From the UHGV virus genome UHGV-0277313: DNA of 64,000 nucleotides. One strand, given 5' to 3'. This document shows, piece after piece, positions 2,661 through 64,000 of this stretch. The position numbers and the translations under genes are program-made. Within the stretch, counting starts at the first letter, position 1, and each line of letters starts with the position of its first letter. Under the pieces are notes generated by a model. It had not been told where the DNA came from. It searched no databases and saw only the letters and a program-made list of their open reading frames with translations. The DNA comes from a virus.

Positions 2661-2663
2661 ATC

Positions 2664-4634
2664 ATGAATCAACAGAATAAAGATTTTTATAATGTTTTAA
2701 ATGATCATAATGTTTTAGTTGAAGAAGACGAAGGTTATGAAATTCAACAAGCTGAAGCTTTACAGAAATCTTTGGAAAAAGCTAAAACTTTAGAAGATTT
2801 GTTTAAAATTAAGTCATTCGGCAATTATGTTGGTTCATTGCATGTTATGTCTAGTGATGGTACTGATACAGAAGCATCGAGTTCAAATTATAAACCTATC
2901 ATTGATTTTAAGACTTTGACAGGTTTTTCATATGAAGATAAGTTAAGAGTTGTAACATTTTGTTGCGCTGTAATAACTTCTGTTTTTGACGCGTTGAAAC
3001 AAAAGAAGAAGCTGGACGACGAATCACTTGCACAAAAAATACCTGTTGGTAAAAAAATTGCTGTTAGTTTAGGAAAAGATTCTGATTTAAAAAACAATGT
3101 TTTTGGTTATGATATTGTAGCAGATAAATTAAATGAGATTAACGAAAATAAAAGTATGTTGATCAATTTAAATGTAAACAGTGATTATTTATATAAAATG
3201 TTTGCATCTGGTATTTTATCATTGGAAAATATTGGTGAATTCATTGTTAAGTTTAAATCAGATACGTGTGAATTTGTTTGTCAATCTTCAAAACTTTCTG
3301 AAATTTTGAATATCCTTAATTTATTGCAAAGAGAAGCAAGCAATGTAACTTCAATAAATTCTTTAAAAGATTCTTTTGGAGTTTTATTGAATAATATTGT
3401 TTTTACGTTTTGTGGTTTGACTGTTAATGAGATTTTCAGTGATACAAATGAACGTGAATATGAATTATTTTCCAGCTTAAGTGAAGAAGATAGAATTCAG
3501 TTAAAGCGTACTGTTGTAGAGGAATTAGTAGATAGTTTTTCTAAAAAAATACATTTAGATCCGTATAAGATTAATTTTAACAGTAGTTTTAATGTTGATG
3601 GAAAAGTTTCGTTTATAACGGATTTTAATTTCAAATCTGTAAATGTAAAAAAAGCTAGTGAAGATACAGCTTCAAAAAATATTAAAACTAAAGGTAAGTC
3701 AGATAATATTTTATATTATGTGGCGCAGCAATTATCAACAGCAGATTTTTCAAAATTTGATGAAAAATTTGAAATTCAGAATTCAGGTTTTGTTAAAAAG
3801 TTTAATGCTGATTGGAAATTGGTGCTTAAACCTGTATTTGATGAAGAAAATATTAAAAAAACAAAAGATGCACTTGATGATTTGAAGTTTGAAATTGACG
3901 AAAGATTATCAAAGTTAAAATTTTTGTATGATGCCAATATTCCAATGAAAAAGGTCGGTCAGTCAGAAATTGTAGATGATGACAAGATTTCAAATAATTT
4001 AATGGATGTAATGGAAGACTTGACAGAAAAAGATGAAATAAAAAGCACTCTATCTGGTTCTGGTTATTTCTTTAGAGTTACTTTAAAAAAGTTTGTTGTG
4101 TTAAAGAAAAATTTTAATGATAGCAAAAAACAGATACAGGCTTTGTATGATGTGAAACTAAAAAAAGCTAAAGACGATTACCCTGAACTTGGTAAAGATG
4201 GTAAGATTTCACAATCAAAATTGAAGTCCTATCAAAGTAATGTTTCGGAGTTGGAAGATAAAAAAGAAAGTAGTTTATCAGATTTGAAAACGAAATACAT
4301 GGAGTCTAGAGCTAAATTAGTTGCAAATGCAGAAGAGGCTGTCAGAGCAATAAATACTTTAGCATCATCTATTTCATCAAATCAAAATAAGTTGAGAAGA
4401 ACTGAAGATTTTATGAACAGTTTAGGTAAAGATAGTTATTCTAAAGATGTCTGTGAGGCATGGAAAGAAAGCTTTTTATCATTGTTGTCGGAAGAGGATA
4501 ACGTTGTTCAAAAAAGAATTCCTGAACCAAAACGTGAGTCAGATAAATCGTATAGGTTAAATGGAAAACTAAGCTTTAACTTTAATAATAAAGATTATTT
4601 TTATACAATGAATTTGTTGATTGTTGTACGGTGA
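2664..4634 (+). CDS. hypothetical large coiled-coil protein (possible virion or scaffold protein)
   Basis: 656-aa ORF, K/E-rich heptad-like segments; 4-nt overlap with the next ORF (translational coupling). Confidence 0.45.
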   Translation: MNQQNKDFYNVLNDHNVLVEEDEGYEIQQAEALQKSLEKAKTLEDLFKIKSFGNYVGSLHVMSSDGTDTEASSSNYKPIIDFKTLTGFSYEDKLRVVTFCCAVITSVFDALKQKKKLDDESLAQKIPVGKKIAVSLGKDSDLKNNVFGYDIVADKLNEINENKSMLINLNVNSDYLYKMFASGILSLENIGEFIVKFKSDTCEFVCQSSKLSEILNILNLLQREASNVTSINSLKDSFGVLLNNIVFTFCGLTVNEIFSDTNEREYELFSSLSEEDRIQLKRTVVEELVDSFSKKIHLDPYKINFNSSFNVDGKVSFITDFNFKSVNVKKASEDTASKNIKTKGKSDNILYYVAQQLSTADFSKFDEKFEIQNSGFVKKFNADWKLVLKPVFDEENIKKTKDALDDLKFEIDERLSKLKFLYDANIPMKKVGQSEIVDDDKISNNLMDVMEDLTEKDEIKSTLSGSGYFFRVTLKKFVVLKKNFNDSKKQIQALYDVKLKKAKDDYPELGKDGKISQSKLKSYQSNVSELEDKKESSLSDLKTKYMESRAKLVANAEEAVRAINTLASSISSNQNKLRRTEDFMNSLGKDSYSKDVCEAWKESFLSLLSEEDNVVQKRIPEPKRESDKSYRLNGKLSFNFNNKDYFYTMNLLIVVR

Positions 4635-5113
4635 TTGATATGAACGATTTAGAGCAGATTAAAGAACATTTAGAAAAGGTAATGTTGGCAGAAAACGTTC
4701 GTGAGTGGATGGTTATAGTCAATAAAGGTTTGTTAGGAAATCGTCGTGTCGTATATTCAACTGATGATAGAAGTAAAGTAAAAGAAAAGTTTGAATGGTA
4801 CCGTGATACTTATCCTAATATTAAGTTTCGTATTATGACAAAATCATCTTTTAGAGATTCGTATCATCGTTTCCCTGAATACATTGACGATGCAAAAAAG
4901 CAACAGTTGTTTGGTGATAGAGAAAGAAAAGTTTCGTATGGTCAATCTGAAGTTAAAAAACGGTATGTTTTTTCGCCGCGTACAAAAGACGTAGAGGTTG
5001 ATGTAGAGGAACCTGTAGAAAAAGAGATTATTAGAACAACGGTTATTAAAGAGCCACAACAACAACAAAATGGTTATGTTAAAACAAAACCTGTTGATAT
5101 AAAGAAAGTTTAA
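4631..5113 (+). CDS. hypothetical protein
   Basis: 160-aa ORF followed by a strong terminator. Confidence 0.45.
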   Translation: MIDMNDLEQIKEHLEKVMLAENVREWMVIVNKGLLGNRRVVYSTDDRSKVKEKFEWYRDTYPNIKFRIMTKSSFRDSYHRFPEYIDDAKKQQLFGDRERKVSYGQSEVKKRYVFSPRTKDVEVDVEEPVEKEIIRTTVIKEPQQQQNGYVKTKPVDIKKV

Positions 5114-5122
5114 TTTTGTTAG

Positions 5123-5160
5123 ACCCGTCAAATTAACTAAAATTTGACGGGTTCTTTATT
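5123..5160 (+). terminator. rho-independent terminator
   Basis: 12-bp perfect stem acccgtcaaatt/aatttgacgggt (5123-5134/5141-5152), 6-nt loop aactaa, then T-rich tract tctttatt. Confidence 0.7.
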
Positions 5161-5188
5161 TACTATATTTTCTATTCGGAGAATTTCT

Positions 5189-7068
<1,880 letters not shown>

Positions 7069-7139
7069 TAATTTTATTCCGTTTCTTTTTTCACTATTCA
7101 CGTTTTTTGTTCTTTATGCAATGAAGGTTACGGTGAAAA

Positions 7140-7538
7140 ATGGCTGGCGAAGTTCGATATCAATATCGTGATTTTAACTTGAATTACATAACAGGTGGTG
7201 AAAAAGGACCAGCTTGCGTATCAGGTTATGCTGCGATTAGAGAATCTTTATTAAATATTTTATATACAGATATGGGTTCACGTTTTTTTAATCGTGGATT
7301 TGGAAGTTTATTGCAACCGTTATTGTTTGAGCCTATGAATGAGTCAACGGTTTCAAGTATAAGAACAGTGTTATATACAAATATTCCTGAATTAGAGCCT
7401 CGTATTGAGATGGGACCTTATGATGTTGAGGTTGAAGCAGATTATGCCAATCATTGTTACATTGTGACAATGCATATGATAGAAAAAAGCACAAATCAAT
7501 CTTTGAAGTTAAGTGCTGTACTTGAACAGGTGTCGTAA
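7140..7538 (+). CDS. baseplate wedge protein, gp25/GPW-like
   Basis: 132 aa; GPACVSGYAAIRESLLNILYTDMGSRFFNRGFGSLLQPLLFEPMNEST is the typical GPW/gp25 core; sits directly upstream of a baseplate-J-like gene. Confidence 0.6.
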   Translation: MAGEVRYQYRDFNLNYITGGEKGPACVSGYAAIRESLLNILYTDMGSRFFNRGFGSLLQPLLFEPMNESTVSSIRTVLYTNIPELEPRIEMGPYDVEVEADYANHCYIVTMHMIEKSTNQSLKLSAVLEQVS

Positions 7539-10500
7539 TGGAATTAAGAAATAATTTAGTAATTGACTATGATACTTTTAAAGCAGCATTGACTGAAATT
7601 TTATTGGAAGATTCTGATACTTTTAGGTCGTTATACCCTGGCTCAACGGCAAATATTTTCGTTGAGTGTTTATCAGGTTATGCTGCAATGTTAATGTATA
7701 GATTGCAGACAGCGATCACAAATTCATTTTTGAAAACAGCATTTTCGGAATATTCAATTTTTTCAATTGCTGAAATGTTGGGTGTTATCATTCGTGGTAA
7801 TACAGGTTCAAAAGTTGATGTGGTTTTAGAAAGACAGCCGTTTACGTCAACTCCCAATCTTCCTGCATTTACAATTCCACAGCATACAGGTTTTACGATT
7901 AATAATTTACCTTTTTATAATCGTGAAACATTAACATTCCCAAGTAGTTACACTCAAATTGAAACAACATTGTATCAAGGTGAGATTAAACAGAAAGAGT
8001 ATACAACAACAGGGGCTATGAATGAAAAGTTCTTGTTCGGAGACAGTTTTACCGTTGATATTAGTTATGTAACAGTTTTGGTAAATGGTGTTGAGTGGAA
8101 AACTGATTACGAAACAATTATGGATTATACTGTTGGTGAAGAAAATTCGACAGATAGTGTTCAAGTTGTTTTATTAAGAACAAATGTTGATGGTACGTGT
8201 TACATTCAGTTTGGTAACGGTATTTACGGTGCTTTACCACCAGCTGGATCTATTGTTCAAATTTTATATGCAACAACTGTTGGTGCAGCTGGTAACTTTA
8301 CAGGTGCACAAGATTTGTCAATTAATGACAATCTTCTATCTGACAATATTGAAGCTCCAGAAATTTTACAAGTATCTGGAGCAAGAATTGGCGCTGCAAC
8401 TGATGGTTCGAATAGATTGTCGGCCTCTTCTTTAAAATATGTTTCACCTCGATTATTTGCTTCTAATAATCGTGCTGTTAAGCGTTCCGATTATATTGGA
8501 CAGATGATTTACAATTGCAATTATAAGGATTGTAACTTTTGGGGCGAATATGAACAAGCAAAGAAAGAAGGTTATGCCGACAACTCGATGATGAATAGAG
8601 TTTATTATACGGCAATTACAAATGATTTTTCTGTCAATACTGTTGTTTTTACAACAGGTGATGGTGTAACAAAAGAGTTCACAAAAAATGTATCTTCTAT
8701 TGTGATGTTCCCTGGTTCTGTTGAAGTTAAAAGTGATACAGAAACTTTCCGTGATTATAATGGTATGGGTTACATGTTTTCTGAAGCTTCTGATTATACA
8801 ATTCAGAAAAGTTTAGGAAAAATTGTAACAACAGACGAAGATGATTCAGCAACAGGTGAAACTGTTTCAACTGATACAACTTGTGTTGTTCAGTTTAATT
8901 TATTAGGAAGTATTGGTGAAACAAATCTGAATATTGATTTTTCACAGAGCATGAAGTGTGTTATTGATGTTACAGGTGAAAAGCATTGTAAATTGGGTGA
9001 TAGAACATTTACAAAACAGATTGATGGGAAAACGTATACTTTTACTTTTGATTATAATGATAGACGTATTTTAACTGATGTTGAGTTTAAAGGTGTTGGT
9101 CAGGAGTTTGGATATTCAACATCTGAAATGTCAGTAGCCGTGACAGAAAAATCTGGAAGTATTGTAAATACTGTTAATGATGCAAGATTAAAGGTTTTAT
9201 CAATACAGTATATTACAGGCTCAAGTGTTGTTTATGATAAAACAGAAGTTGTGACAACGGAATTTGATGTTAAGACTTCTTCGAGTGGTAACTTCTCAAA
9301 CACGACAATTACAGTAGCATGGGATGATCCGTCATCTGAATCTGTAGATGGTTCATTACAAATAACTAAAACATTTGAAACATTTTTAAGTTGTAAATTT
9401 GATGAATCAGGTGTTCCACATTGTTGGTTAGGTAGCAATAAATTAGAAAAAGAATTTGATGGCAAGAATTATGTTTTTGAATTCTTGAATAAAGATGGAA
9501 CAACATTGTCTGATGTAGAGTTCATTGAAGGTCAACTTTTTAATAAAGATTCAATGATTTATGTGAAAGGTGAAATCCAAACTTTCACAGAAGAGGGTGT
9601 TGAATACGAAACAATTGAAAATGCGAATGTAAAGATTGTTACTGTTAAATTCGTAGAAAGAGACATTGGAAACATCTTAATACAAAAAGAAAGTGTTGAA
9701 GATGAATCGATGTCGAATGCTAATACTTATTATCAATCATCGCAAGCGCCAACTTCAAGTCACCCAATTGTTATTGATTTTTCATTTGATAAACCGATTG
9801 CTCTTGCTGGTATTCGATTCTTTTCATCTTCATTCTCAACAGCTGAAGACAGGTGTTTCCCGTCTAAAATAATTGTTTTAGGTTGGCGCGGCGGTGAAGA
9901 TGGAACAGACCCTGTCAATTTGCCACTTGAAGATTTTGAATCAAGTGATGAAAATAAGGCTTGGAATTTTAAAGAGTTAATGCATGATACTCGTTGGGAA
10001 CATTTAACTGAAGCCGTGAGTTTGTCTGAACCGGGCGTGTCAGCATGGTCAGATTGGGTAGGTTTGGATACTTCAGCAAACGAAAAAACATTTACATATA
10101 TCAAAGACGGTGCACCAGTAACATCGAAAAAACAGAATGTTTTTAAATTGTATCGTTTGATTGTTTTGGATCGTTTTGGTGCTTCAGAAGAACAGTCTAT
10201 TAAGATTGGTAAAGTTGCTTTAATTACAAAAGCAAAATCATCTTTAGTGAATTATGAAGATGGAAATGCTATAGTTAAGTTCAAATCAGCACCTGCAGTT
10301 GATGAAGTGATTTATGCGACAACTATTGGGGAAAAATTGTCTGATTATCAAAAGTTGCGCGATTACGCTTTCTTAAAGAAAATTAATCATTTTACAACTG
10401 AAGTTGAGTACAAAGATTTGAAATTAAAACGTGTTGATATTGATGTTAAAGTTATTTATAGCAATTCAACAGATGTTTCAACATTAAAATCAAATGTTGA

Positions 10501-36421: not shown

Positions 36422-37027
36422 ATGGGAAATGAAACATTCAATGGTAAAGTATTACAAGCTTTAGATTTAAAAGCGGATAAAGATTTGTTGAACGTTTCTT
36501 CGGAAACGTTACAAACAAAAGTTGAAGCTACATTGTATATGCTTGAACGTTTACCTAATTCTGAATACAGGTTTGTTCATAGATTAGAAAATCCAAAATT
36601 GTCTTTATACATTGAAGGCAGTGTTATTTATGATTCTGAAACAAAAACAACATATGTTAAAACAATCGACGGTCATGAGAAATTAGTCTATGCATCGCAA
36701 GTTCCAGCAGTTACAGAATATTGGTCAGATGGTGTTGGAAATTGGTATTGTAAATGGAATAATGGTTTGTTAGAACAAGGTGGTGTTGTTGAGGGAAACG
36801 GTAATTTTGGTGCAACAACAATTACAATGAAAAAATCTTTTCTAAATACAAATTATTCTTTAATAGTTACACCAAATTTAGAAAATGAATCAATTTTTAC
36901 TAATACTGATGCAATCGGAACGACAGCTTATCTTGCGGATGTTGCTGGTGTAGTTACAAATAAAACAGTGAATAGTTTTAAAATTTCTTCAAGATCAACG
37001 CATTGTTGGTTCGCTAAAGGATTTTAA
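36422..37027 (+). CDS. hypothetical protein
   Basis: 201-aa ORF. Confidence 0.4.
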   Translation: MGNETFNGKVLQALDLKADKDLLNVSSETLQTKVEATLYMLERLPNSEYRFVHRLENPKLSLYIEGSVIYDSETKTTYVKTIDGHEKLVYASQVPAVTEYWSDGVGNWYCKWNNGLLEQGGVVEGNGNFGATTITMKKSFLNTNYSLIVTPNLENESIFTNTDAIGTTAYLADVAGVVTNKTVNSFKISSRSTHCWFAKGF

Positions 37028-37065
37028 AAACTTCACACAAATCAATGAAATTTTAAGAAAAACAC

Positions 37066-37094
37066 TTGCAAAATTTCATCATTTGAGTTAATAT
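37066..37094 (+). promoter_or_regulatory. sigma70-like promoter upstream of tnpB
   Basis: TTGCAA (37066-37071), 17-nt spacer, TAATAT (37089-37094); about 30 nt upstream of the tnpB ATG. Confidence 0.45.
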
Positions 37095-37123
37095 ATTAAA
37101 TTGAGAAAAGAAGCAAGAGAAAA

Positions 37124-38311
37124 ATGATTCGTAGCTCTGCATTGACGTTAAAATTTGCAACAAGCAAAAAGTTGAACACATTGGATTTGGTGTTCAATGA
37201 ATATGCCCGTGTTGTGAATTTGTATATTGATGCCTTGAATCAAACAAAAGTACTGCCCAAATTTACTAATTTCAAAATGGGTACTTGGCTATCAGCCAGA
37301 TTGCAACAATGCGCTGGCAAACAAGCAACTGAAATTGTGAAATCCACAAGGAAGAAAGACAAAGAGATTCGTTTAAAGAAATACAAGAAAATCTATAAGT
37401 ATTTCTTAAATACACAACGGCAAAAGAAATTTATTGGTAAGAAATTCAGTGAATTAAATCTAAATTACAAAATAAAACCAAGATTTGATGGTAAAACAAT
37501 CAATTTGGATAATAGGTTTTGGTCTTTAAATACATCAACCAACTCATTTGATTATTGGGTTAAACTTGGTTCCATTGGTAATAAAATTGGTTTATTGCTT
37601 CCATTGAAAGAGCATAAACATAACAAGAAATTCAGTAATTGGAAACGAGCTGGTTCTTGCCGTCTGCTGAGAAATAACGGGAAATTTAAGATAGAGTTAA
37701 TTTATGAAAAAGCAACTCCTGTTATTCATAAACCAAATAAAATACTTGCAATAGATGCTGGAATTAATTGCCTGATGTCTTGTTCTGACGGGCGTCAGAT
37801 TGGATTGGAATTAAAGAAACTACTAAATGAACTTAACAAGAAACAACAAAAATCAAAATCATACAATCGCAAATTGAATCAGATACACAACTACGTCCGT
37901 TGGTGTGTCAATCAATTGGATTGGAGTAATCTGTCTGATTTGGTTATTGAAAATCTAAAATATATTCAGATTGGAACAAAACAAAAAGTGAACAAAGCAA
38001 CCCGTAGGTTGCTTTCTAAATGGAATTTGGGTTTATGGCATCGCGCTATAGAACAGAAATGCGAAGCAAACTGTGTTTGTTTGCATTATGTTGAACCTAG
38101 ATACACAAGCCAGACTTGTCCGCGTTGTGGTAACGTGGACAAGGGGAATCGGGATGGTGTGTTGTTTAGATGCACAAGTTGCGGCTATGAAGCCAATGCA
38201 GATTTGAACGCGTCTATCAATATACTGAACCGATTTCGTCAGGAGAGGTTGAATTTATCAGCCGATATAGTCCCTGATATGGCAAAAGCTGATTTCATTG
38301 TTTTTCATTAA
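37124..38311 (+). CDS. tnpB: IS200/IS605-family TnpB (OrfB) RuvC-like nuclease, orphan (no tnpA)
   Basis: RuvC-I (ILAIDAGIN); RuvC-II glutamate (DLVIENLKYIQ); zinc finger (CPRCG...CTSCG); RuvC-III (NADLNASINIL); GC visibly higher than flanking phage DNA. Confidence 0.8.
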   Translation: MIRSSALTLKFATSKKLNTLDLVFNEYARVVNLYIDALNQTKVLPKFTNFKMGTWLSARLQQCAGKQATEIVKSTRKKDKEIRLKKYKKIYKYFLNTQRQKKFIGKKFSELNLNYKIKPRFDGKTINLDNRFWSLNTSTNSFDYWVKLGSIGNKIGLLLPLKEHKHNKKFSNWKRAGSCRLLRNNGKFKIELIYEKATPVIHKPNKILAIDAGINCLMSCSDGRQIGLELKKLLNELNKKQQKSKSYNRKLNQIHNYVRWCVNQLDWSNLSDLVIENLKYIQIGTKQKVNKATRRLLSKWNLGLWHRAIEQKCEANCVCLHYVEPRYTSQTCPRCGNVDKGNRDGVLFRCTSCGYEANADLNASINILNRFRQERLNLSADIVPDMAKADFIVFH

Positions 38312-38330
38312 AATTGGAGACTATAGCGGG

Positions 38331-39284
38331 ATGAATATTTTAGTTACTGGTGCTGCTGGTTTTATTGGTTCACATTTGTTTAATAAGTTGTGCAACAATA
38401 AACATACAGTTGTTGGTATTGATAGTTTTACTGGCGATCTTTCTTTAAAAGATATTAAAGAATCTAGAGTTGATAACTTTTTAAGTAAAAGTGGTTTATT
38501 TAAAAAATGTGATATTTTTGATGAATATCTAAATACATTATTCGAACAATATAAATTTGATGTTGTGATACATTTAGCAGCACATTCAGGAGTTCGTGCT
38601 AGTCTTTTAGCACCTGAAGAGTATTATAGAAATAATGTTTTAGGTACTAATCATTTACTAAATCTGATGGTCAAGCATGATTGTAAAAACATTGTTTTTG
38701 CTTCATCATCATCTGTATATGGAAATTGTAAAGATGTAGAATTTAAAGAAACTGCGGTAGGTTTAAAACCTATATCACCGTATGCAGCAACAAAATTGGC
38801 ATGTGAAGAAATGCTTTTTACATATCATAATTTATATGAAATGAATGTTTCATGTTTACGTTTCTTTACTGTATACGGTCCAGAACAAAGACCAGATTTA
38901 GCAATACATAAATTTACAAATAAAATTCTTAATAAAGAAGTTATCAGTGTATTCGGAGATGGTCATAATGTTCGTGACTATACATATATTGATGACATTG
39001 TGAATGGAATCGTTTCTGCTATAAATTATACAGTCTATAATAAAGACGTTTACGATATATTTAATTTAGGTGGTGGAGAGCCTATTAGCATAACTGAAAT
39101 GATTCGTGTGATTGCTTGTAATTTAGGAGAAATTCCTGAAGTTGTTCATGTGTCAATGCAACCTGGTGATGTTGAAAAAACAGTTAGTAATTGTGATAAA
39201 GCAAAAGAGTTGTTAGGGTATTCCCCTAAAGTATCTTTTAATGATGGTATAAAAGAATTTTTAAAATGGAAGTTAAAACATTGA
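38331..39284 (+). CDS. NAD-dependent nucleotide-sugar epimerase/dehydratase (SDR family)
   Basis: ILVTGAAGFIGSHL Rossmann motif and YAATKLACE (YxxxK catalytic pair); ATG at 38331 with GGAG RBS (tracked start 38298 is a TTG inside the tnpB 3' end). Confidence 0.8.
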   Translation: MNILVTGAAGFIGSHLFNKLCNNKHTVVGIDSFTGDLSLKDIKESRVDNFLSKSGLFKKCDIFDEYLNTLFEQYKFDVVIHLAAHSGVRASLLAPEEYYRNNVLGTNHLLNLMVKHDCKNIVFASSSSVYGNCKDVEFKETAVGLKPISPYAATKLACEEMLFTYHNLYEMNVSCLRFFTVYGPEQRPDLAIHKFTNKILNKEVISVFGDGHNVRDYTYIDDIVNGIVSAINYTVYNKDVYDIFNLGGGEPISITEMIRVIACNLGEIPEVVHVSMQPGDVEKTVSNCDKAKELLGYSPKVSFNDGIKEFLKWKLKH

Positions 39285-40081
39285 ATATTTTGTATTCACT
39301 CGATGATAATTTCATTAATTATACGAAGACATCAATGTTGTCTTTATTAAATAATTCAAAAGAGTTCGTGAATTTTTATTTGTTAACAAATTCAGAAGTT
39401 ATTAGTGAAAAAGATTTTGATGTCTTAAGAAGAGTTCGAGATTGTAACATTAAGTTAGTTTTTGTGCCTGAATCAAAATATAAGTTTTTAGAATCAAGAA
39501 AAATGTTTCAGCATTTAAGTGTGGCAACGTATTTTCGTCATTTTGCATCAGAATTAATAGAAGATGTATCAAAAGCTGTTTATATAGATTCAGATACTTT
39601 AATTGTTAGTGATATAAATAATATACTTAATGAAAATGTTGGAAGTTTTGAGTATGTACGTGGTGTAGAAGATGCCGCATCAGAAAAGAAAATGAAATTG
39701 TGGGATATAAATAGATACATAAATGCAGGTGTTTTGTTAATGAATCTAGATTATGCAAGAAAAGATTTGAATGAGTTTTATGAAAAGATTGCATACTTTT
39801 ATCAAAGATTCGGAAATAAAACAATATCTGGCGATCAGGATATGTTAAATTTTGTATTTAGACCAAAGTATATTCCATTTAGATATAATTTATATCATCC
39901 TTTTTTTAATAAACAGTTTGTACCAGCCAGTTGTTCACAAGATGTTTATTACGAAGAGTGTAAAACACCTGTTGTTATACATTTTGTTGGTAGTAGAAAA
40001 CCGTGGATAAGTGACGTTACTCATCCCTATAAAAGTTTATGGGAAAGTACGTTTAATTTATTGCAACATTTAGATAATTAA
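39266..40081 (+). CDS. glycosyltransferase family 8 (LPS alpha-1,3-galactosyl/glucosyltransferase-like)
   Basis: LNILYSLDDNFINYTKTSMLSLL N-terminal signature, YIDSDTLIV DxD motif, INAGVLLMNL and GDQDMLN motifs typical of GT8 (RfaJ/LgtC type). Confidence 0.75.
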   Translation: MEVKTLNILYSLDDNFINYTKTSMLSLLNNSKEFVNFYLLTNSEVISEKDFDVLRRVRDCNIKLVFVPESKYKFLESRKMFQHLSVATYFRHFASELIEDVSKAVYIDSDTLIVSDINNILNENVGSFEYVRGVEDAASEKKMKLWDINRYINAGVLLMNLDYARKDLNEFYEKIAYFYQRFGNKTISGDQDMLNFVFRPKYIPFRYNLYHPFFNKQFVPASCSQDVYYEECKTPVVIHFVGSRKPWISDVTHPYKSLWESTFNLLQHLDN

Positions 40082-52789: not shown

Positions 52790-54784
52790 ATGAAGCAAGT
52801 AATAAAACGCGATGGAAAAGAAGTTAAATTTAATTTGAAAAAGATTGTATCGGCTATTCGTAGGGCTGGAGAGTCTTCTGGTGAATTTGGTTATGACGAA
52901 GCTTTAGATTTAACAAATTCAGTAATTCAAATGTTTGATAATAAAGAAAAAGCAACTGTTGAAGAGATTCAAGATGCTGTTGAAAAAGTGTTGAATGAAA
53001 ATAATTACACAAAGACAGCACGCGCTTTTATTGTGTATCGTGAAAAACATAATGATATGAGAAAAGATAATAATGTAATGATTGATGCTGTTCAGTCAAT
53101 TGATGATTATCTTGATCGTTCAGATTGGCGTGTAAACGCTAACGCAAATCAGGGGTATTCTTTAGGTGGTATGATTCTAAATACTTCTGGTAAAGTAACA
53201 GCAAATTATTGGTTGAGCCATGTGTACCCTAAAGAAGCTGGTGAAGCACATCGTAATGGTGATATACAGATTCACGATTTAGATATGTTAGCAAATTATT
53301 GTACTGGATGGTCATTGCGTGCATTGCTTCAGGAAGGCTTTAACGGTGTTAAAGGTAAAGTTGAAAGTAAACCACCAAAACATTTAGCTTCAGCTTTAGG
53401 ACAAATGGTGAATTTTTGGGGTTGTTTACAGAATGAGAATGCAGGTGCACAGGCATTTAGTAGTTTCGACACATATCTTGCACCTTATGTTCGTAATGAT
53501 AAATTGACATACAAACAGGTTTATGATGCTATTCAGGAATTTGTATTTAATGTGAATGTTCCTTCAAGATGGGGAACACAGACGCCTTTTACGAACATTA
53601 CATTAGATTGGACATGTCCGGAAGATTTGAAGGATTCACAACCTATAATTGCTGGTGAAGAGATGGATTATACATATTCTGAACTTCAACCAGAAATGGA
53701 CATGATTAATAAAGCCTTTATTGAAGTCATGATTAAAGGTGATGCACATGGACGTTTATTTACATTTCCTATTCCGACATATAATATTACACCAGACTTC
53801 CCGTGGGAAAGCGAAAATACAAAGTTGTTGTTCGAAATGACGGCAAAGTATGGGTTGCCGTATTTTCAGAATTTCTTGAATTCAGATTTGAAAGTTGGTG
53901 ATGTTAGAAGTATGTGCTGTCGTCTTCAACTTGACTTGCGTGAAATTAAAAAACGCGGTGGCGGTCTATTTGGTTCAGGGGAACAGACAGGTTCAATTGG
54001 TGTTATAACAATTAACTGTGCGCGTTTAGGGTATCTGTTTAAGAATGATATAACAGGTTTATATAAACGTTTAGATGAATTGATGAATATTGCTAGAAAT
54101 GCATTAGAACAAAAAAGAAAGTCATTAAATAAATGGATGGAGCAAGGTTTGTATCCTTATTCTAAACGTTATTTAGGTGGTTACAACACTTTGTTTTCAA
54201 CGATAGGAATTAATGGTGTAAACGAAATGATTCGTAACTTTACAAACGATGAACATGATATCACAGATGACTATGGACAGAAGTTTGCAATGTCTTTAAT
54301 GGATCATATTAATGAGGTGTTAAAACAATTTCAGGTTGAAACTGGTAATTTATACAACTTGGAGGCTACGCCAGGAGAAGGAACTACTTTTAGGTTTGCG
54401 AAAGAAGATAAAAAACGCTATCCTGAAATTATTCAAGCAGGAAAACCTGAAGCACCTTATTATACAAACTCAACACAGATACCTGTTGGGTATACAAATG
54501 ATCCATTTACTGCATTAAATCTGCAGGAAGGTTTGCAGAGACGCTATAGTGGCGGCACAGTTGTACACCTTTACATGGGAGAAGCAATGTCATCATCAGA
54601 TTCTTGCAAGACTTTAGTGAAGCGTGTTCTGGAGAATTATCACATTCCATATTTAACAATTACACCTACGTTCTCGATTTGTCCTAAGCATGGGTATATC
54701 TCAGGTGAACATAAATATTGTCCTATTTGTGATGAAGAGTTAACTTCACCAAAGCAAGAGCAATGTAAAGCTTGTAAGGGTTAA
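52790..54784 (+). CDS. nrdD: anaerobic ribonucleoside-triphosphate reductase NrdD, catalytic core lacking the glycyl-radical loop
   Basis: N-terminal ATP-cone (VIKRDGKEVKFNLKKIVSAIRRA); NrdD blocks GGG(L)FGSGEQTGSIGVITINCARLGY and CCRLQLD; C-terminal zinc ribbon CPKHG...CPICDEE...CKAC; ORF stops at ...QCKACKG*, where NrdDs normally continue R-x-C-G-Y-L-G. Confidence 0.85.
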   Translation: MKQVIKRDGKEVKFNLKKIVSAIRRAGESSGEFGYDEALDLTNSVIQMFDNKEKATVEEIQDAVEKVLNENNYTKTARAFIVYREKHNDMRKDNNVMIDAVQSIDDYLDRSDWRVNANANQGYSLGGMILNTSGKVTANYWLSHVYPKEAGEAHRNGDIQIHDLDMLANYCTGWSLRALLQEGFNGVKGKVESKPPKHLASALGQMVNFWGCLQNENAGAQAFSSFDTYLAPYVRNDKLTYKQVYDAIQEFVFNVNVPSRWGTQTPFTNITLDWTCPEDLKDSQPIIAGEEMDYTYSELQPEMDMINKAFIEVMIKGDAHGRLFTFPIPTYNITPDFPWESENTKLLFEMTAKYGLPYFQNFLNSDLKVGDVRSMCCRLQLDLREIKKRGGGLFGSGEQTGSIGVITINCARLGYLFKNDITGLYKRLDELMNIARNALEQKRKSLNKWMEQGLYPYSKRYLGGYNTLFSTIGINGVNEMIRNFTNDEHDITDDYGQKFAMSLMDHINEVLKQFQVETGNLYNLEATPGEGTTFRFAKEDKKRYPEIIQAGKPEAPYYTNSTQIPVGYTNDPFTALNLQEGLQRRYSGGTVVHLYMGEAMSSSDSCKTLVKRVLENYHIPYLTITPTFSICPKHGYISGEHKYCPICDEELTSPKQEQCKACKG

Positions 54785-58936: not shown

Positions 58937-59539
58937 ATGGCGCGCAACTCCATTAAATATGTTGTTGATATTGATTTAAATAAAAATTATCTTAAAAAAG
59001 CACGTTTTGAAAATCTTGCTGAAGCCCCTGCAGATCCAGCAGAGGGTCAAGTATACTATAATACAACAGATAAATGTTTTTATTTTTTCCATGAAAGCAG
59101 TTGGGAAAAGTTTGTTAAAACTTCTGAATTATTAACACTATTAAACGAGATGCTTCTTCCTGGTGACGGTGTTGATATTAAATTATACCCAGCTGAAAAT
59201 CCGACAAAATTACAAGTTTCTGTAAAAAATAAAAGCGCACTGTATGTAAAAGAATTTGGCGTTTCTGATTGGACTAATGGTGTCATGACTATTACTAAAG
59301 CAGTGCATCAATGCGGTGCAAAACCTGTACTTCAGGAAGTTATGGAATACGTTACTGTTGGTGATAAAACCATATCTCGTGATGTTGAAGTTGGTTTTGA
59401 ATATAATGCTGATGGTGATGTAACACTATACTCATCAGAAGGGTTTGTAGGGTATCTTCAGATAGGTTCACCTTATTCTGACCCAGTTCCTGTTGAAAGC
59501 AGTTTGAATGATATTCTATATGGCCCTGTTGTAGAGTAA
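58937..59539 (+). CDS. hypothetical protein
   Basis: 200-aa ORF; last plus-strand gene before the inverted block. Confidence 0.4.
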   Translation: MARNSIKYVVDIDLNKNYLKKARFENLAEAPADPAEGQVYYNTTDKCFYFFHESSWEKFVKTSELLTLLNEMLLPGDGVDIKLYPAENPTKLQVSVKNKSALYVKEFGVSDWTNGVMTITKAVHQCGAKPVLQEVMEYVTVGDKTISRDVEVGFEYNADGDVTLYSSEGFVGYLQIGSPYSDPVPVESSLNDILYGPVVE

Positions 59540-59554
59540 ATAGATGACAATAAA

Positions 59555-59597
59555 AATAACGGGTTTCTTAATTGAAACCCGTTATTTTATTTTTTAT
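59555..59597. terminator. bidirectional rho-independent terminator between convergent genes
   Basis: 13-bp stem aataacgggtttc/gaaacccgttatt (59555-59567/59574-59586), loop ttaatt, T-runs on both flanks. Confidence 0.7.
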
Positions 59598-59926
59598 TGT
59601 TTAATTTTAATCGTTAAAGAATATTTACCATTATCTTTTTTGATATTTGTTAAAGTGGCTGTCAGATATTCTTTTGACGTGTGTGAATTATTGAAGCATT
59701 GCAATTCAATCGTTTTAAAGTCAATAAATTTGCTTGCTATTTGCTGTATTTTACTTGAATGTGCTCTTGTGATAGTAATTTCCTCAAGTTGCTGTAGCCC
59801 TTTAAAAAGGGGTTTAGGAAGTACTATTTTAAAAGATGCAATTTCGTTTTTAATCACTGCATGGGCTTTCTTCTTTAAGAATTTAGAAATTAAATTTTTC
59901 AAGAATTCAACAATTTTCTTAAACAT
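59594..59926 (-). CDS. hypothetical protein
   Basis: ATG at 59926 with GAGG RBS (tracked 59938 is TTG); 110 aa. Confidence 0.4.
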   Translation of the reverse strand: MFKKIVEFLKNLISKFLKKKAHAVIKNEIASFKIVLPKPLFKGLQQLEEITITRAHSSKIQQIASKFIDFKTIELQCFNNSHTSKEYLTATLTNIKKDNGKYSLTIKIKQ

Positions 59927-59963
59927 GGCAAACCTCAAATTTATTATTTGATATAAAAAATAG

Positions 59964-60020
59964 AACCCGTGTCAATAACAAATCACTATAATTAATTCGT
60001 TATCAACACGGGTTTCTTTT
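59964..60020 (-). terminator. terminator downstream of the minus-strand glycyl-radical gene
   Basis: imperfect 17-bp hairpin gaacccgtgtcaataac/gttatcaacacgggttt (59964-59980/59999-60015) with U-runs on both strands. Confidence 0.5.
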
Positions 60021-60025
60021 GTTTT

Positions 60026-61097
60026 TTATTCAGCAGCAATTGCTGAAACTTCCGTATGTTTGAAAGCAATATTTTCTTTGAAGTATTTGCGTTCTTCAAA
60101 TTCTGATTTCTTTCCAACATTGAAGTTTTCGTATGGACGGAAATACTTAATCGACTATTACTTCAGATTTATCTGTTGTTTCGTTTAGTCTGTCAAGGTA
60201 GCTTCTAGCAATACCATAATTTCTTTGTAATAGGTATCGAGGTTTGCCGTCGTACATAAAGTTAATAAGTTTCAGGCATTCAGATTGATTAAAACGTAAT
60301 CTAAACAGTTTACCGTTTGTAACAATCTTTTTTGTTTCATTTATTACTTTATGTCTTACTAAAATACTTTTTACATTTTTTAGTACAGGCATGTAACCAA
60401 TAATTTCTGCAAACAGATGGTTGTTATGTAAACCGTCATAATAAAAAGAACCGTCGGCATCAAAAAGACCTCTGATAAAATCTTTTGAGATTTCATCTTG
60501 TAACAGGTCTATATGAATATCTCCACGGTCTTTTTTAAGTTTTGTTAATTCATAGCGTTTTAAAGCTTTATGCAACTTCCAGCTTCGAATTTCAAAACCA
60601 CATGATGGGTATTTATTTTTAGCAAGGAAACGTTTAATCGGTTTATCACTACCAATAAAATTTCTAAAATTGGTTAATAAATTTATATCCTTTTCAGCAC
60701 AACATATTCTGATTTTATTTTCTGTTGTACAGTTTCCTTCACCGTATAAATAACCAATCCAATATGCAGATTCATGATTTATACAATCAAACACTTGTTC
60801 ATTAAGTGTATATTTTCGTTTGTTCATTTTTACATCCTTTCGGATAAGTCTTCCGACTTGAGCTTTCCTCATCGTTACTTTAATGTTTAATTAAAGCTTT
60901 CGATTATTATTAGAAACAATTTTATTTGGGCTATTTCACTTATGCGCACCCATGACGCGGGTCCATACTTCTGTTAACTGATGTTTATTGCCATCTTTCA
61001 TAGTGACAATTTGTTCAGTTTCATCGTAGTCTTCAATTTCATTGAAATCTTTGACTCCCTTTAGGCGCAACAACGCCATCTTTTTTTCATTTAACAT
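60026..61097 (-). CDS. small glycyl-radical subunit completing NrdD (GrcA-like), split by a group I intron
   Basis: exon 1 (61097-60948, RBS GGAG) encodes MLNEKKMALLRLKGVKDFNEIEDYDETEQIVTMKDGNKHQLTEVWTRVMG; exon 2 (60145-60029, stop 60028-60026) encodes YFRPYENFNVGKKSEFEERKYFKENIAFKHTEVSAIAAE; the junction recreates RVMG-YF, the glycyl-radical signature, and the tail parallels E. coli NrdD ...RTCGYLGNPNERGFNLGKNKE...; unspliced exon 1 would read ...RVMGAHK*. Confidence 0.6.
60146..60947 (-). mobile_element. putative group I intron (802 nt) carrying a LAGLIDADG homing-endonuclease ORF
   Basis: 5' exon ends ...AUGGGU; intron begins GCGCAUAAGUGAAAUAGCCCA; GCCCA (60931-60927) pairs with exon UGGGU (P1, U.G at the splice site); adjacent AAUA (60935-60932) pairs with the first 3'-exon bases UAUU (P10); last intron nucleotide is G (60146); core P3-P9 not verified. 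Confidence 0.5.
60147..60872 (-). CDS. LAGLIDADG-family homing endonuclease (intron-encoded)
   Basis: two LAGLIDADG motifs (YWIGYLYGEGNC and IRGLFDADGSF); alternative start MNKRKY at 60827 with AAGGA RBS; its stop abuts the intron 3' end. Confidence 0.75.
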   Translation of the reverse strand: MRKAQVGRLIRKDVKMNKRKYTLNEQVFDCINHESAYWIGYLYGEGNCTTENKIRICCAEKDINLLTNFRNFIGSDKPIKRFLAKNKYPSCGFEIRSWKLHKALKRYELTKLKKDRGDIHIDLLQDEISKDFIRGLFDADGSFYYDGLHNNHLFAEIIGYMPVLKNVKSILVRHKVINETKKIVTNGKLFRLRFNQSECLKLINFMYDGKPRYLLQRNYGIARSYLDRLNETTDKSEVIVD

Positions 61098-61449
61098 TTT
61101 AATTCTCCATTAAGTTAAGTGGAAATAAAAATCCGAAATGGAGTTCCAGATTCTTATTTGTGTGTTTTCCTATTTACTGTGTGTAAAAGCACATTCTTTA
61201 AGAAACATACTGTTTCCTAAAGGTAGATTGAAGAACTAAAGCTTTTATCTATCATACTGATAATAGCTTTAAAAATTCTTCTTTATTTTCAATAAGTTAA
61301 GGTTGTTGACAAACATTTTTATTTAGTTTAAAACGTTGAAAAACAACAAACATTTCAAGAACAAAAAGTTAATTTTAGAAGAAATGTTCCTAACCTATTG
61401 AAATCGTTAAGTTGCAAAAGATGTTTTTGTCTAATGCAATTTAATTGTG

Positions 61450-61644
61450 TTAAAATGGCAATTCTGGCTCATCACTTGTATCAACAAACACCTGTTTCTT
61501 TATCAAGTTTGATTTACCTTTAAACTCAAGCTTATTTGATTTCAGAAAAGAAAACCAAATTGAATAAAATTCAGATTCTGTTAAATTATCAGGTAACTCG
61601 ATTGAACCTGATACAGTGAAAGATTTAATCGTCTTCGTACTCAA
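61450..61644 (-). CDS. small hypothetical protein (paralog of 61625-61828)
   Basis: 64 aa; shares VSGSIELP / ISGSIETP with the upstream small ORF. Confidence 0.35.
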   Translation of the reverse strand: MSTKTIKSFTVSGSIELPDNLTESEFYSIWFSFLKSNKLEFKGKSNLIKKQVFVDTSDEPELPF

Positions 61645-61828
61645 AATCTATCTCTTCTTCCATATCTTCTAGTTCACGATCTGTATCCTCTGTTGGTTCA
61701 ACGGTTCCTGCAAAAGTCCATCCGTTTTCTTCCATCAATTCAATAATAGCATCAATTACAGTATCAGCATCCTCTGTTCTTGGAGTTTCAATTGAACCGC
61801 TAATATCAAACCAAATACGTTTACTCAT
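61625..61828 (-). CDS. small acidic protein
   Basis: 67 aa, C-terminal acidic tail DMEEEIDFEYEDD; preceded by a near-consensus sigma70 promoter and AAAGGA RBS. Confidence 0.45.
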   Translation of the reverse strand: MSKRIWFDISGSIETPRTEDADTVIDAIIELMEENGWTFAGTVEPTEDTDRELEDMEEEIDFEYEDD

Positions 61829-61856
61829 TAATTAAATCCTTTTATTAAGTAAAATT

Positions 61857-61885
61857 ATGATAGCAAAAGACCGCATAAATGTCAA
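61857..61885 (-). promoter_or_regulatory. sigma70-type promoter (minus strand)
   Basis: on the minus strand: TTGACA (61885-61880), 17-nt spacer, TATCAT (61862-61857); about 25 nt upstream of the ATG at 61828. Confidence 0.55.
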
Positions 61886-61905
61886 GTAAAATAGAAAAAT
61901 TTTAT

Positions 61906-64000
61906 CTATTCTTCACGTTTACCATAAAAACCGTTGCCGACAAAATACTTGCTTTTGAAATCCATATTTGGGCAAGGATCTTCAAATTCAAGCTTCAGTG
62001 AAATAAGTTGTGTCGGGACTTCAATAGGTAACTCTTCACGTTCTTCTGGAGGGATAGGGTCACCTTCTTTCATCTCAAGTATTTTGTAGTCGTATGCTTC
62101 ATCAAGTTCACGTTTTAAATAATCCCAATTGCAGTTGCCTCCCTTGATATTTAAAATGAATTTACCATCCTTCTCTTCAAAAGATTTAATATCCATTTCA
62201 CGTCCCCATGATTGACCTAAACCAAAATCAATGAACATTTTGTTTCCGTTCATCCAATCATAAATAACATTTGGTACCGTACCTGCATGAAATTGACAAA
62301 TCTTAAAAACTGGAATTAATTCACCTGGGTATATGTCAAGATATGTTGAATCATGAACACCACCAATCATTACTGATTGTAAATCGTGCATCAACATCTC
62401 TTCTGCAATATGTGTACCTGCAATCCATGCCATACGGCTAGCGGATGAATTGTGTACAAAAACACCAGCTTCTAATGCGAAATTGTGTGTATTTTCATTG
62501 TTTTCAACTTCAATATCATATACTGAAATTTTGTTTGGTAGTTTAATTACTTCAACAGATGTAACTTTATGGTTGTTGAATAATTCTGCTACTAAACGTT
62601 CATAATTTTCTTTTGAAAAGTGCGGAACACTTGAAGCTCTAGCTCCTTCATTAATATAAGACAATCTGTATTCTTCAAAAATATTTTCGAAAGAAGAATC
62701 TAGTAATATATTTTTACCAAGTTTTTCAATAATTTTTAAAGAAAGTTTTTTGAACTTATAAAAAGTTGTATTCTTTCCACATTTTCTGATATTATTTTTC
62801 ATATGCTGTATCTTTTCTAGATCATTACCTTTCCAAATTTTATTTATTGTTTTTCTGGCAGATTCAGACAATTGTTCTTTAGACATACAGAATGCATTTC
62901 CATATGTTTCAATGCGTTTTTTTACCAAAGCTTTAACTGCTTCTCTTTGGTTAAAATCCCAATCTTTATAAAGTTCTTTTCTTTTTTTATTTTTTTCAGC
63001 CATTAATTTAGATTGTTTTTCAGAATGTTCTTGTGTTAAAAAATGTTTCCAAATATTGTTTTCACGTTTGCCTTCTCGTATTTCACGTACACGTTTTTGA
63101 GTGTCAATACTACGTTGTTTTGAAGTATATTTCAAACCCATTTGACGTAAATATTCGTGAACAGATACACCTGTCAGGTCAGCATGTCTTTTAATAGTAG
63201 ACATTACAAGAGATGAATGATATTTTATATGTTCTGCCTTATCCATAATAAGTAAATTATCAGGGTTGTTGTTTAATTTGTTGAAATCTTTGTGATGTAC
63301 TGCTTCATTTTTTTCAATAGTACGATCATAATATTTACTTACTATACGATGTACAGAGGCCCAAGGTTTTGTAGTTAAATCATTTCTTTTAACATATTTA
63401 TACCCTAACTTGTCATATTTTGTATAACAAGGCATTAAGCTTTCATTATTTTTTAAATCGATAGCATGTTTATATGTTCCATCCCTTAACATAAACTGGT
63501 GTTCAGGTGTGCATGTAATAATTTCGCCAGAATCTAATGTAACTTTACAAATTGTGTCAGTTTCTCCAGATTTAAAAGCGTTAATAATTTTGCCAGGTAT
63601 AATTTTACCATCATTACAACAAGATAAAACATACTTATTTTCAAAATTATTCACAAGGTTTTGAATTTCAACAACACTGCCATCTAATAAAGGTATTTTA
63701 GTATCACCAACAAAACATTGGATCCCACTATTCTGGCTTGCATTCATAGCATGATTCAACAACTTCCTGTTGCTTTTAGTGTCAGGCAACATTGCATCTG
63801 GTAACGGTCTAGTACAACCAAATACGTCAACAATATATCCATGCTCACGGGCGAACTTGTGTTGATATTCAACGTATGTTTTAATACCAGGGTATGCCCC
63901 CATCATTTTATCAATAGTTTCTTGAGCTTCTTCGACAGTGCATCCCCACTCTTTTGAAAAGTTGTAGGCTGATTTTCCATAGAGTAGACCAAACATTGTT
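61906..64000 (-). CDS. family A DNA polymerase, C-terminal piece (O-helix/motif B and motif C), intein-containing; 5' end beyond the window
   Basis: MFGLLYGKSAYNFSKEWG = Pol I motif B (NFGxxYG); then ...NASQNSGIQ [intein] SSASRMAWIAGTHIAEEM...GGVHDSTY (motif C, VHDE-like); the reading frame stays open to the window edge. Confidence 0.7.
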   Translation of the reverse strand, partial: TMFGLLYGKSAYNFSKEWGCTVEEAQETIDKMMGAYPGIKTYVEYQHKFAREHGYIVDVFGCTRPLPDAMLPDTKSNRKLLNHAMNASQNSGIQCFVGDTKIPLLDGSVVEIQNLVNNFENKYVLSCCNDGKIIPGKIINAFKSGETDTICKVTLDSGEIITCTPEHQFMLRDGTYKHAIDLKNNESLMPCYTKYDKLGYKYVKRNDLTTKPWASVHRIVSKYYDRTIEKNEAVHHKDFNKLNNNPDNLLIMDKAEHIKYHSSLVMSTIKRHADLTGVSVHEYLRQMGLKYTSKQRSIDTQKRVREIREGKRENNIWKHFLTQEHSEKQSKLMAEKNKKRKELYKDWDFNQREAVKALVKKRIETYGNAFCMSKEQLSESARKTINKIWKGNDLEKIQHMKNNIRKCGKNTTFYKFKKLSLKIIEKLGKNILLDSSFENIFEEYRLSYINEGARASSVPHFSKENYERLVAELFNNHKVTSVEVIKLPNKISVYDIEVENNENTHNFALEAGVFVHNSSASRMAWIAGTHIAEEMLMHDLQSVMIGGVHDSTYLDIYPGELIPVFKICQFHAGTVPNVIYDWMNGNKMFIDFGLGQSWGREMDIKSFEEKDGKFILNIKGGNCNWDYLKRELDEAYDYKILEMKEGDPIPPEEREELPIEVPTQLISLKLEFEDPCPNMDFKSKYFVGNGFYGKREE
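62449..63717 (-). mobile_element. intein (423 aa) with HNH homing-endonuclease domain inside the DNA polymerase
   Basis: starts CFVGDTKIPLLDG (block A, Cys1), TCTPEHQFML (block B TxxH), HNH domain AVHHKDFNKLNNNPDNLLIMDKAEHIKYH, ends ...VYDIEVENNENTHNFALEAGVFVHN followed by +1 Ser; precisely in-frame between conserved pol motifs. Confidence 0.7.

Follow-up and report, generated by a model that had tools for sequence, protein, structure and literature searches.

What moves at a locus where a tnpB gene without tnpA is followed at once by a sugar epimerase gene and a GT8 glycosyltransferase gene: the three genes together, or tnpB alone? This question is raised by positions 37,066–40,081 of the virus genome UHGV-0277313, of which a stretch of 64,000 nucleotides (nt), here called the window, was analyzed. 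With a probability of roughly 0.75, positions 37023–38324 make up a non-autonomous insertion sequence (IS) of an IS607-type clade, which would comprise a promoter, an intact tnpB and an omega-RNA, would cut element-free sites and would be moved by a transposase acting in trans. The element is inserted precisely at GGTAT/A (here and below, a slash marks a junction), between a tail-fiber-like gene and the epimerase gene. It is present in some close relatives of this phage and absent from others; the unit has been mobile recently and is under selection.

The limits of the element follow from two comparisons. The window's own tnpB recurs on a 277-kb contig together with a paralog (76% identical), which lies 124 kb away in an unrelated neighborhood, and the DNA similarity between the window and this paralog runs from about 37021 to about 38325 only. 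The second comparison is with contigs that were fetched by look-up of the exact epimerase protein, which makes them a biased sample. The tnpB gene is present next to the identical epimerase in the window, L001/L005, L006 and L008, and is absent from seven near-identical contigs (L004, L007 and L009–L013) that keep the identical 317-residue epimerase. In these seven, the tail-fiber-like gene runs directly into the epimerase ATG, which it overlaps, and the GT8, HU and dUTPase genes come next, as in the window. The empty junction is seamless (AAAGGTAT/AGCGGTATG). When the empty sequence, ...GCTAAAGGTAT/AGCGGTATGAAT..., is aligned with the occupied one, ...GCTAAAGG-AT[TTTAAAAACTTC...TTGGAGACTAT]AGCGGGATGAAT..., the two match seamlessly around 37023–38324, which is therefore taken as the insertion. 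Its right limit lies 6 nt short of the epimerase ATG (38331, as placed by gene callers). There is no target duplication past a shared TAT, the tips are not terminal inverted repeats, and each end is found once in the window. The occupied allele is one T short at its left junction, and the resulting GGAT is common to all occupied copies at this site. A DDE transposon with a 3-bp duplication is ruled out by the tips, which are not inverted repeats, and by the TAT, which is constant rather than site-specific; an IStron is ruled out by the absence of a group I intron and by a left end of just 101 nt. The ends and the target-adjacent motif (TAM), which the initial annotation could not define by eye, are hence available (Table 1).

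The same comparisons answer the first half of the question. The initial annotation had tnpB travel with the epimerase and GT8 genes, possibly as an IS-borne moron that brings glycosylation functions. The three genes are indeed adjacent and co-oriented, with a gap of 19 nt (not 20, as first counted) between the tnpB stop codon (38309–38311) and the epimerase ATG, and with the noted overlap of the epimerase and GT8 reading frames, which amounts to 19 nt; the latter two genes are also more AT-rich (29% and 27% GC) than tnpB. Such a passenger cassette is nevertheless extremely improbable and is already refuted by the seven genomes that hold the identical epimerase and GT8 without tnpB. Furthermore, homology between copies stops at 38324, ahead of the epimerase ATG, and the genes downstream of 11 other copies are entirely different. 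The synteny check against insertion-free relatives, proposed along with the cassette, thus finds the two glycan genes without tnpB at the identical junction, although the IS ends are real. GT8 follows downstream of the epimerase whether the site is occupied or empty. Because the empty genomes keep both genes and the paralog shares only 37021–38325, both lie outside the mobile unit: they are resident phage genes, bystanders and not cargo.

Table 1. Features of the locus, in window coordinates (aa, amino acids)
Feature	Position	Strand	Remarks
Tail-fiber-like phage gene, 201 aa	36422–37027	+	Weak Pfam match to Gp53-like_C; outside the element
TAM remnant	37019–37022	+	GGAT here, GGTAT in the empty allele (alignment)
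Mobile element (left end, tnpB, omega-RNA, right end), 1302 bp	37023–38324	+	Homology to paralog; seven empty alleles
Left end, 101 nt	37023–37123	+	Conserved between copies; promoter-like boxes; inverted repeat ATGAAATTTT...AAAATTTCAT
Promoter-like TTGCAA-17-TAATAT	37066–37094 (boxes 37066–71, 37089–94)	+	Read from sequence; 8/12 consensus positions
tnpB, RNA-guided nuclease (predicted), 395 aa	37124–38311	+	RuvC-I D211, RuvC-II E276, RuvC-III D360; zinc finger C332/C335/C350/C353
Predicted omega-RNA scaffold, about 210 nt	38115–38324	+	Almost wholly within the 3′ end of the tnpB reading frame; fold and covariation
Scaffold helices	38115–38143	+	Predicted
Scaffold long stem	38145–38164 with 38218–38237	+	Encloses helices 38172–38174/38209–38211 and 38184–38185/38198–38199
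Scaffold stem	38238–38278	+	Encloses variable hairpin 38247–38263 and conserved UAUAGUCC
Scaffold terminal hairpin	38288–38318	+	Followed by 3′ tail GACUAU
Right-end terminal 33 nt, ATTTCATTGTTTTTCATTAAAATTGGAGACTAT	38292–38324	+	Most conserved part of the family
Predicted 16-nt guide, AGCGGGATGAATATTT	38325–38340	+	Flanking phage DNA directly 3′ of the scaffold; spans the epimerase ATG (38331–38333)
NAD-dependent sugar epimerase/dehydratase, 317 aa	38331–39284	+	PF01370, PF16363 and PHROG matches; outside the element
GT8 glycosyltransferase	39266–40081	+	Pfam PF01501, 105 bits; outside the element

What does the element insert into? The ends of 11 further copies were read (L002, L014, L015, L019, L142–L146, L140 and L141), the last two being IMG/VR contigs recovered with a degenerate pattern of the 33-nt right end. 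The left flanks end in GATAT, AGTAT, TGTAT, CGTAT, CGTAT, GATAT, GGTAT, AGTAT and AGTAT; this list leaves out L145, where the flank is unclear, and L140, whose left end was not recovered. The empty allele of the window site reads GGTAT. With this allele standing in for the window copy, RTAT is counted at 11 of the 12 left junctions read, ten of them at further insertion sites. The right ends of all 11 further copies finish in (T/C)AACTAT, compared to GACTAT in the window, with unrelated sequence beyond. Since flanks and right ends read in this way, the element inserts beside RTAT with TAT (or AT) at both junctions, and RTAT is its target motif and predicted TAM. The element occupies at least 11 different sites. 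Together with the present/absent polymorphism and the retention of ends and catalytic residues, this makes a domesticated TnpB, the other option raised at the outset, unlikely. An antisense omega-RNA at the left end, an idea that arose when TAT seemed to be confined to the right junction, was dropped once TAT was found at both.

Several copies have company. The 277-kb contig of the window's lineage (L001 and L002 are the same contig) carries at least two more tnpB genes besides the window's own, three in total: the 76%-identical paralog (L002 10001–11194), which lies upstream of an HD-domain gene, and, 7 kb from it, a gene for a different TnpB of 360 residues (L002 2840–3922). L145 has two TnpB genes about 1 kb apart. 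In L141 (36 kb; positions 1–8532), a 363-residue TnpB, 32% identical to that of the window, shares the 33-nt right end and the GTAT/ left junction; it sits inside a phage tRNA array (eight tRNAs called), with a tmRNA gene 5.7 kb downstream.

The protein encoded by the element matches Pfam Cas12f1-like_TNB (PF07282) with 68.7 bits (cut-off 26.3), and its residues 23–370 match phrog_506, annotated as ‘transposase’. The NCBIfam model NF040570 (guided_TnpB) gives 99.3 bits against a cut-off of 100, with Cas12f2 as the runner-up; the relatives L141 and L146 exceed this cut-off with 113 and 108 bits. Weaker scores come from PF01385 OrfB_IS605 (21.2 bits, cut-off 30.5) and from the NCBIfam models IS607_TnpB (37 bits) and IS200_TnpB (30.9 bits). 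The complete RuvC motifs and the zinc finger described in the initial annotation hold up well: D211 (in AIDAG), E276 (in VIENLK), D360 (in NADLN) and the cysteines of the CxxC...CxxC motif are invariant in 11 family members that are 71–100% identical. The best solved-structure matches of the C-terminal RuvC/zinc-finger region are Cas12f proteins (E-values of about 1e-16 to 1e-20), and D211 and D360 align with catalytic residues of these structures. Automatic alignments are ambiguous about the RuvC-II glutamate; E276 is taken as catalytic because the E[ND]LK motif is also kept in relatives that are 32% and 42% identical. In a profile alignment to ISDra2 TnpB, which serves as a lead only, D211 and D360 presumably correspond to D191 and D361. 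The ratio of nonsynonymous to synonymous divergence (dN/dS) between element copies is 0.07–0.14, so the protein is under purifying selection. As noted at first, there is no tnpA: the element has 101 nt ahead of the tnpB ATG and 13 nt past its stop, which leaves no space for one, and tblastn with the L146 transposase finds no homolog of this serine transposase in the 64-kb window or at the other loci. TnpB is an orphan, yet apparently a functional one, with RNA-guided cleavage predicted from its sequence.

The guide RNA of such a nuclease would be expected at the right end. The 205 nt ending at 38324 fold with a z-score of -4.3 relative to shuffled sequences, and in a consensus structure of 11 copies 95% of cells are paired. 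Double-sided pair changes number 14, compared to 8.2 ± 1.4 in shuffles (0 of 500 as high) and 4–5 in slid controls. The hairpin at 38247–38263, which falls in codons of the variable C-terminal tail of TnpB, shows compensatory changes at five of its six pairs. Across the final 62 codons, most copy pairs show roughly half the synonymous divergence (dS) of the remainder of the gene. Similarity among 12 copies breaks off abruptly after ACTAT. The terminal 33-nt pattern recurs, nearly unchanged, after TnpBs that are 32% and 42% identical (two IMG/VR contigs), and in L141 the TnpB stop codon coincides with the first three bases of this stretch, leaving the remainder non-coding. As the 33 nt persist next to such divergent proteins and outside coding sequence, the constraint is one on nucleic acid rather than protein. 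Rfam contains no family at gathering score (chance-level hits only at E-values up to 5), and RAGATH-18 is not matched. The conserved 3′ structure is predicted to be an omega-RNA with a 16-nt guide over the epimerase start codon, the guide length being borrowed from ISDra2 TnpB (PMC13565253). The suggestion that an omega-RNA would derive from the tnpB 3′ end plus about 16 nt running into the epimerase start is supported by these results. In the empty alleles, GGTAT/AGCGGTATGAATATTT, a TAM would be followed by a target that mismatches the guide once, at position 6.

Which transposase moves this clade? The NCBI metagenome assembly contig L146 carries a tnpB related to that of the window at 73% identity, with the same right end and with a left end that aligns from the same TAT (GTAT/) junction. 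Its tnpB is overlapped, as ATGA, by a gene for a 190-residue IS607-family serine transposase (NF033518, 186.5 bits, cut-off 110), which has a helix-turn-helix-like N-terminus and a YARVSS motif. The clade is read as IS607-type because this serine transposase is joined to a 73%-identical tnpB with the same ends; the short identical core at both junctions is as expected from a 2-bp serine-recombinase crossover. On this sequence comparison the window copy is a transposase-less derivative that has lost this gene. The autonomous relative (L146 2320–4198) lies directly after what appears to be the 5′ two-thirds of a tRNA-Leu(UAA), ...GACTTAAAATC...GCGGAGTAT/, where ARAGORN calls no tRNA at the insertion site. 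The same contig encodes a primase, a helicase and an excisionase-like helix-turn-helix protein and may be another mobile element or a phage.

An IS200/IS605-type element of the IS1341 group, mobilized as single-stranded DNA by a Y1 HUH transposase with RTAT as the left and CTAT as the right cleavage site, is an improbable alternative to this assignment. Insertion 3′ of an AT-rich motif without duplication is as described for IS200/IS605 (PMC13565253), the tnpB-only layout fits the IS1341 group (PMC10691335), and a hairpin stands 6 nt before the right-end ACTAT. Yet no Y1 transposase is called beside any of the 13 copies read, the sole transposase met in the clade is a serine recombinase, and the IS200_TnpB score is low (see above). 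No transposase of either the Y1 or the serine type is called near 12 of these 13 copies; the genes called around the 11 copies from the protein look-up include none with a recorded Y1_Tnp domain, and L141 is without room for one. The subterminal hairpins that had been singled out for a check turn out to be conserved at the right end (in L145 another hairpin takes its place), whereas the left-end inverted repeat at 37045–37079 is not kept in other copies.

The two ends (37039–37064 and 38292–38315) also hold stretches of 13–17 nt that are 82–92% complementary to each other: AAATCAATGAAAT with ATTTCATTGTTTT, and AAATTTTAAGAAAAACA with TGTTTTTCATTAAAATT. The left end of L146 has a similar GAAAATTTTATAAAAA. 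These stretches may serve a transposase as binding sites, which would then overlap the terminal omega-RNA hairpin.

Homologs number about 335. Protein-based searches of IMG/VR with TnpB, the tail-fiber-like protein and the epimerase find no relatives; megablast of 5 kb against INPHARED phages gives none, and tblastn gives only hits of at most 34% identity. The closest bacterial IS, which was to be looked up for tnpB, did not emerge: GTDB genomes, searched by peptide pattern and with the 33-nt right-end pattern, yielded neither a relative nor a match, hence no bacterial host copy. The 120 hits of the left-end 16-mer in JGI metagenomes are chance matches, none of which encodes a TnpB relative.

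The promoter and the base composition, both of which had been put forward as marks of the gene, fare less clearly. The boxes described as a near-consensus sigma70 promoter are conserved in close copies, and L015, L143 and L144 have TTTACA-17-TATAAT/TAAAAT at the same place; the position is conserved, and the sequence falls short of the description. The scan used here lists sites from 9 of 12 consensus matches upward and does not list this one, and it shows no excess of promoter-like sites in the region over chance. A left-end promoter is plausible from the sequence. Similarly, the element is richer in GC (33.6%; reading frame 34.7%) than the window as a whole (31.4% ± 2.5%), as was claimed, but about 20% of equal-sized windows are equally GC-rich and the element is no outlier.

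Several observations weigh against the reading of a working IS607-type element. The promoter-like site, with 8 of 12 consensus positions, is below the scan threshold. An AlphaFold2 model of TnpB from an 11-sequence alignment is unusable (pLDDT 41.5, pTM 0.25). All seven sampled empty alleles have T for G at guide position 6, and the window copy may be unable to cut them. The two bases before ACTAT are AG at the window site compared to TA or CA in the 11 other copies, a change that might impair the omega-RNA. The inspection for a transposase covered 64 kb out of a total of about 300 kb, and the serine-transposase link comes from one relative, L146. Finally, a TAT target and ends other than GG depart from the IS607 rule as published.

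Some of these points would suit a decaying relic, that is, an immobile and inactive insertion: the transposase is absent, the target motif is one base short, two substitutions lie in the last 11 nt of the right end, and the guide mismatches the known empty alleles. A relic is hardly to be expected, however, to have an intact reading frame with invariant catalytic residues, a dN/dS of about 0.1 and compensatory changes maintained in its RNA stems, nor occupied copies at one site that differ in patches, as if exchanging with paralogs. Decay is accordingly rated as a poor explanation of the locus, with little probability. The patches are seen where L006 4693–5994 is compared with window 37023–38324. 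The flanks are virtually identical, and the element differs by 5, 16, 7 and 8 bases in single 100-bp blocks, with no differences elsewhere. One patch is a fully re-paired version of the 38247–38263 hairpin. The pattern resembles that of gene conversion among paralogs.

The insertion also touches its neighbors. The last two codons of the tail-fiber-like gene and its TAA stop (37025–37027) span the left junction into the left end of the element; in empty-site genomes the protein has 203 residues and its stop codon overlaps the epimerase ATG as ATGA. With the one-base loss at the left junction (37019–37027), the tail-fiber-like reading frame ends at the TAA in the element and is spared 10 extra codons. 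At the right end, the AG (window 38316–38319) gives rise to a GGAG located 11 nt ahead of the epimerase ATG; the AAGG that originally preceded this ATG has been displaced. The new GGAG may be a compensating ribosome-binding site, possibly costly to the RNA. The AG change and the one-base loss look like adjustments that limit harm to the flanking genes.

The window is part of a large phage. The identical TnpB sequence is found on contigs of 277–313 kb, and the phage, with a genome of about 300 kb, is a virulent-looking jumbo phage. Proteins encoded in the window include a GroEL-like chaperonin, a baseplate protein, NrdD, dUTPase, HU and an SMC-like ATPase. The GroEL/Cpn60-type chaperonin (210 bits) and the anaerobic ribonucleotide reductase NrdD with an ATP-cone are encoded at 5470–7068 and 52790–54784, respectively. 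Nearly all genes are on the plus strand up to about 60 kb, where gene strand and GC skew change sign (about 59500–64000).

How would a transposase-less IS607-type element work and spread in such a phage? The left-end promoter would drive a tnpB transcript, and TnpB would bind the structured 3′ part of this transcript, which would end in a 16-nt guide read from the DNA past the right end. The complex would then recognize an uninterrupted RTAT followed by a guide match in element-free phages and cut there. During co-infection, repair of the cut against an occupied genome would copy the element in; alternatively, the cut might merely disable a competitor phage. New RTAT sites would be reached by means of a serine transposase acting in trans. 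For a plasmid population, spread that depends on TnpB and not on TnpA has been demonstrated, and such spread is also proposed for phages that co-infect (PMC13565253); OMEGA transposons are mostly non-autonomous (PMC10691335).

Differences between occupied and empty genomes bear on this scheme. The two groups differ by about 1% overall. Over about 7 kb there are 14 fixed differences, four of which lie within 27 bp of the junction (at -9, +6, +24 and +27); the one at +6 is the guide mismatch of all seven empty alleles. The clustering at the junction fits short co-conversion tracts or the selection of cleavage-resistant targets, and tight linkage to an old insertion could also be its source. That the data reflect a natural gene drive, in which an element homes between co-infecting jumbo phages by RNA guidance and without a transposase, along with a counter-move to it, is a tentative idea, and more doubtful than probable.

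A second element lies nearby in some of these genomes. It is an unrelated TnpB element of 1264 bp that encodes 394 residues with HTH_OrfB_IS605, OrfB_IS605 and TNB domains. Its site corresponds to window 42649/42650, 4.3 kb downstream, which is empty here and occupied in L007 (10319–11582), L008, L010 and L012. It sits between a gene for a 178-residue protein and the dUTPase gene, with the junction CAAGGAG/element/TTTGTAATG, and parts the dUTPase ribosome-binding site from its ATG. It was first taken as IS607-type from its AAGGAG flank, an assignment that was dropped, as IS200_TnpB scores 380 bits and IS607_TnpB 261 bits. Occupied and empty alleles at this second site each occur on both flanking haplotypes, GATAATCTTTATG and GATAGTCTTGATG, which fits repeated conversion or precise loss. 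Occupancy here and at 37023 assorts independently.

Independent assortment of this kind in near-identical genomes would be expected of a selfish element rather than of a beneficial gene that has become fixed, and it bears on the possibility that TnpB, recruited or tolerated, serves the phage by destroying co-infecting relatives that lack the element. Such a role would agree with the strong purifying selection on the protein, with a guide matching a site that exists only in element-free competitors, and with the presence of several TnpB elements per genome (three tnpB genes on one 277-kb contig); moreover, the killing of competitors is a recognized side-effect of phage homing endonucleases (PMC13565253). 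In sequence data alone its mechanism would look the same as that of homing, and the sampled competitors mismatch the guide at position 6. A selected role of this kind is considered unlikely, though less so than decay or a Y1-driven element.

Compared to known systems, the element of the window is closest in layout to non-autonomous OMEGA transposons of the IS1341 type. Both consist of a single tnpB between short asymmetric ends without target duplication, both have (here, by prediction) an omega-RNA overlapping the 3′ end of the reading frame, a guide read from the flank and a target motif 5′ of the left end, and both occur in multiple copies per genome. The window element differs in its host, a jumbo phage and not a bacterial chromosome, in its divergent protein, and in the transposase-bearing relative of its clade, which has a serine and not a Y1 enzyme. 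With the IS607 family it shares the lack of inverted terminal repeats and of a real duplication, a short AT/TAT core at both junctions, and the IS607-family transposase of the L146 relative, while the window copy itself is without tnpA. Most IS607 elements have GG ends, insert at GG and use an AGGAG/GAGGG TAM (PMC13565253). The window element has the ends TTTAAAAAC... and ...ACTAT and the target RTAT, no RAGATH-18 match, and an IS607_TnpB score as low as that given above.

ISDra2 TnpB has the same domain order, a guide RNA derived from the 3′ end with a guide of about 16 nt, and, as its proposed role, the cutting of the empty site. The similarity of the two proteins is very low (hhalign probability 95%, 177 aligned columns, an alignment that serves as a lead). 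ISDra2 has the TAM TTGAT, compared to RTAT in the window element, and a Y1 transposase. The closest structures to the C-terminal region of the window TnpB are those of Cas12f, although the Cas12f2 model (NF049972) gives 88.5 bits, below its cut-off of 450. Neither a CRISPR array nor an adaptation gene lies near tnpB, and the gene is inside a 1.3-kb mobile unit. Unlike TldR-like nuclease-dead TnpBs, the protein has an intact triad, and its locus is present or absent among relatives and its element multi-copy.

The ecological parallel is with phage homing endonucleases such as T4 Seg and Mob. Both these and the window element are intergenic and present or absent among close phages, with differences that cluster near the insertion, and both would be expected to cut the element-free allele during co-infection. 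Recognition by homing endonucleases is a matter of protein only, whereas an RNA guide plus a short motif is proposed for the window element. In homing by the latter, self and non-self would be told apart by the insertion itself.

Phage TnpB elements and transposase-less OMEGA transposons are already well documented, and in this respect the finding is an ordinary one that corrects an over-reading: the glycan genes are not cargo. To this it adds exact ends, matched empty sites in near-identical genomes, an RTAT motif and a covariation-backed guide RNA, as well as a link to a serine transposase with a target rule unlike the published GG rule of IS607. The locus also makes two propositions testable. 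One is the activity of a compact, Cas12f-like nuclease of 395 residues with an AT-rich TAM of 3–4 nt. The other is that TnpB alone may drive an element through a phage population at co-infection, which has so far been seen in plasmids only.

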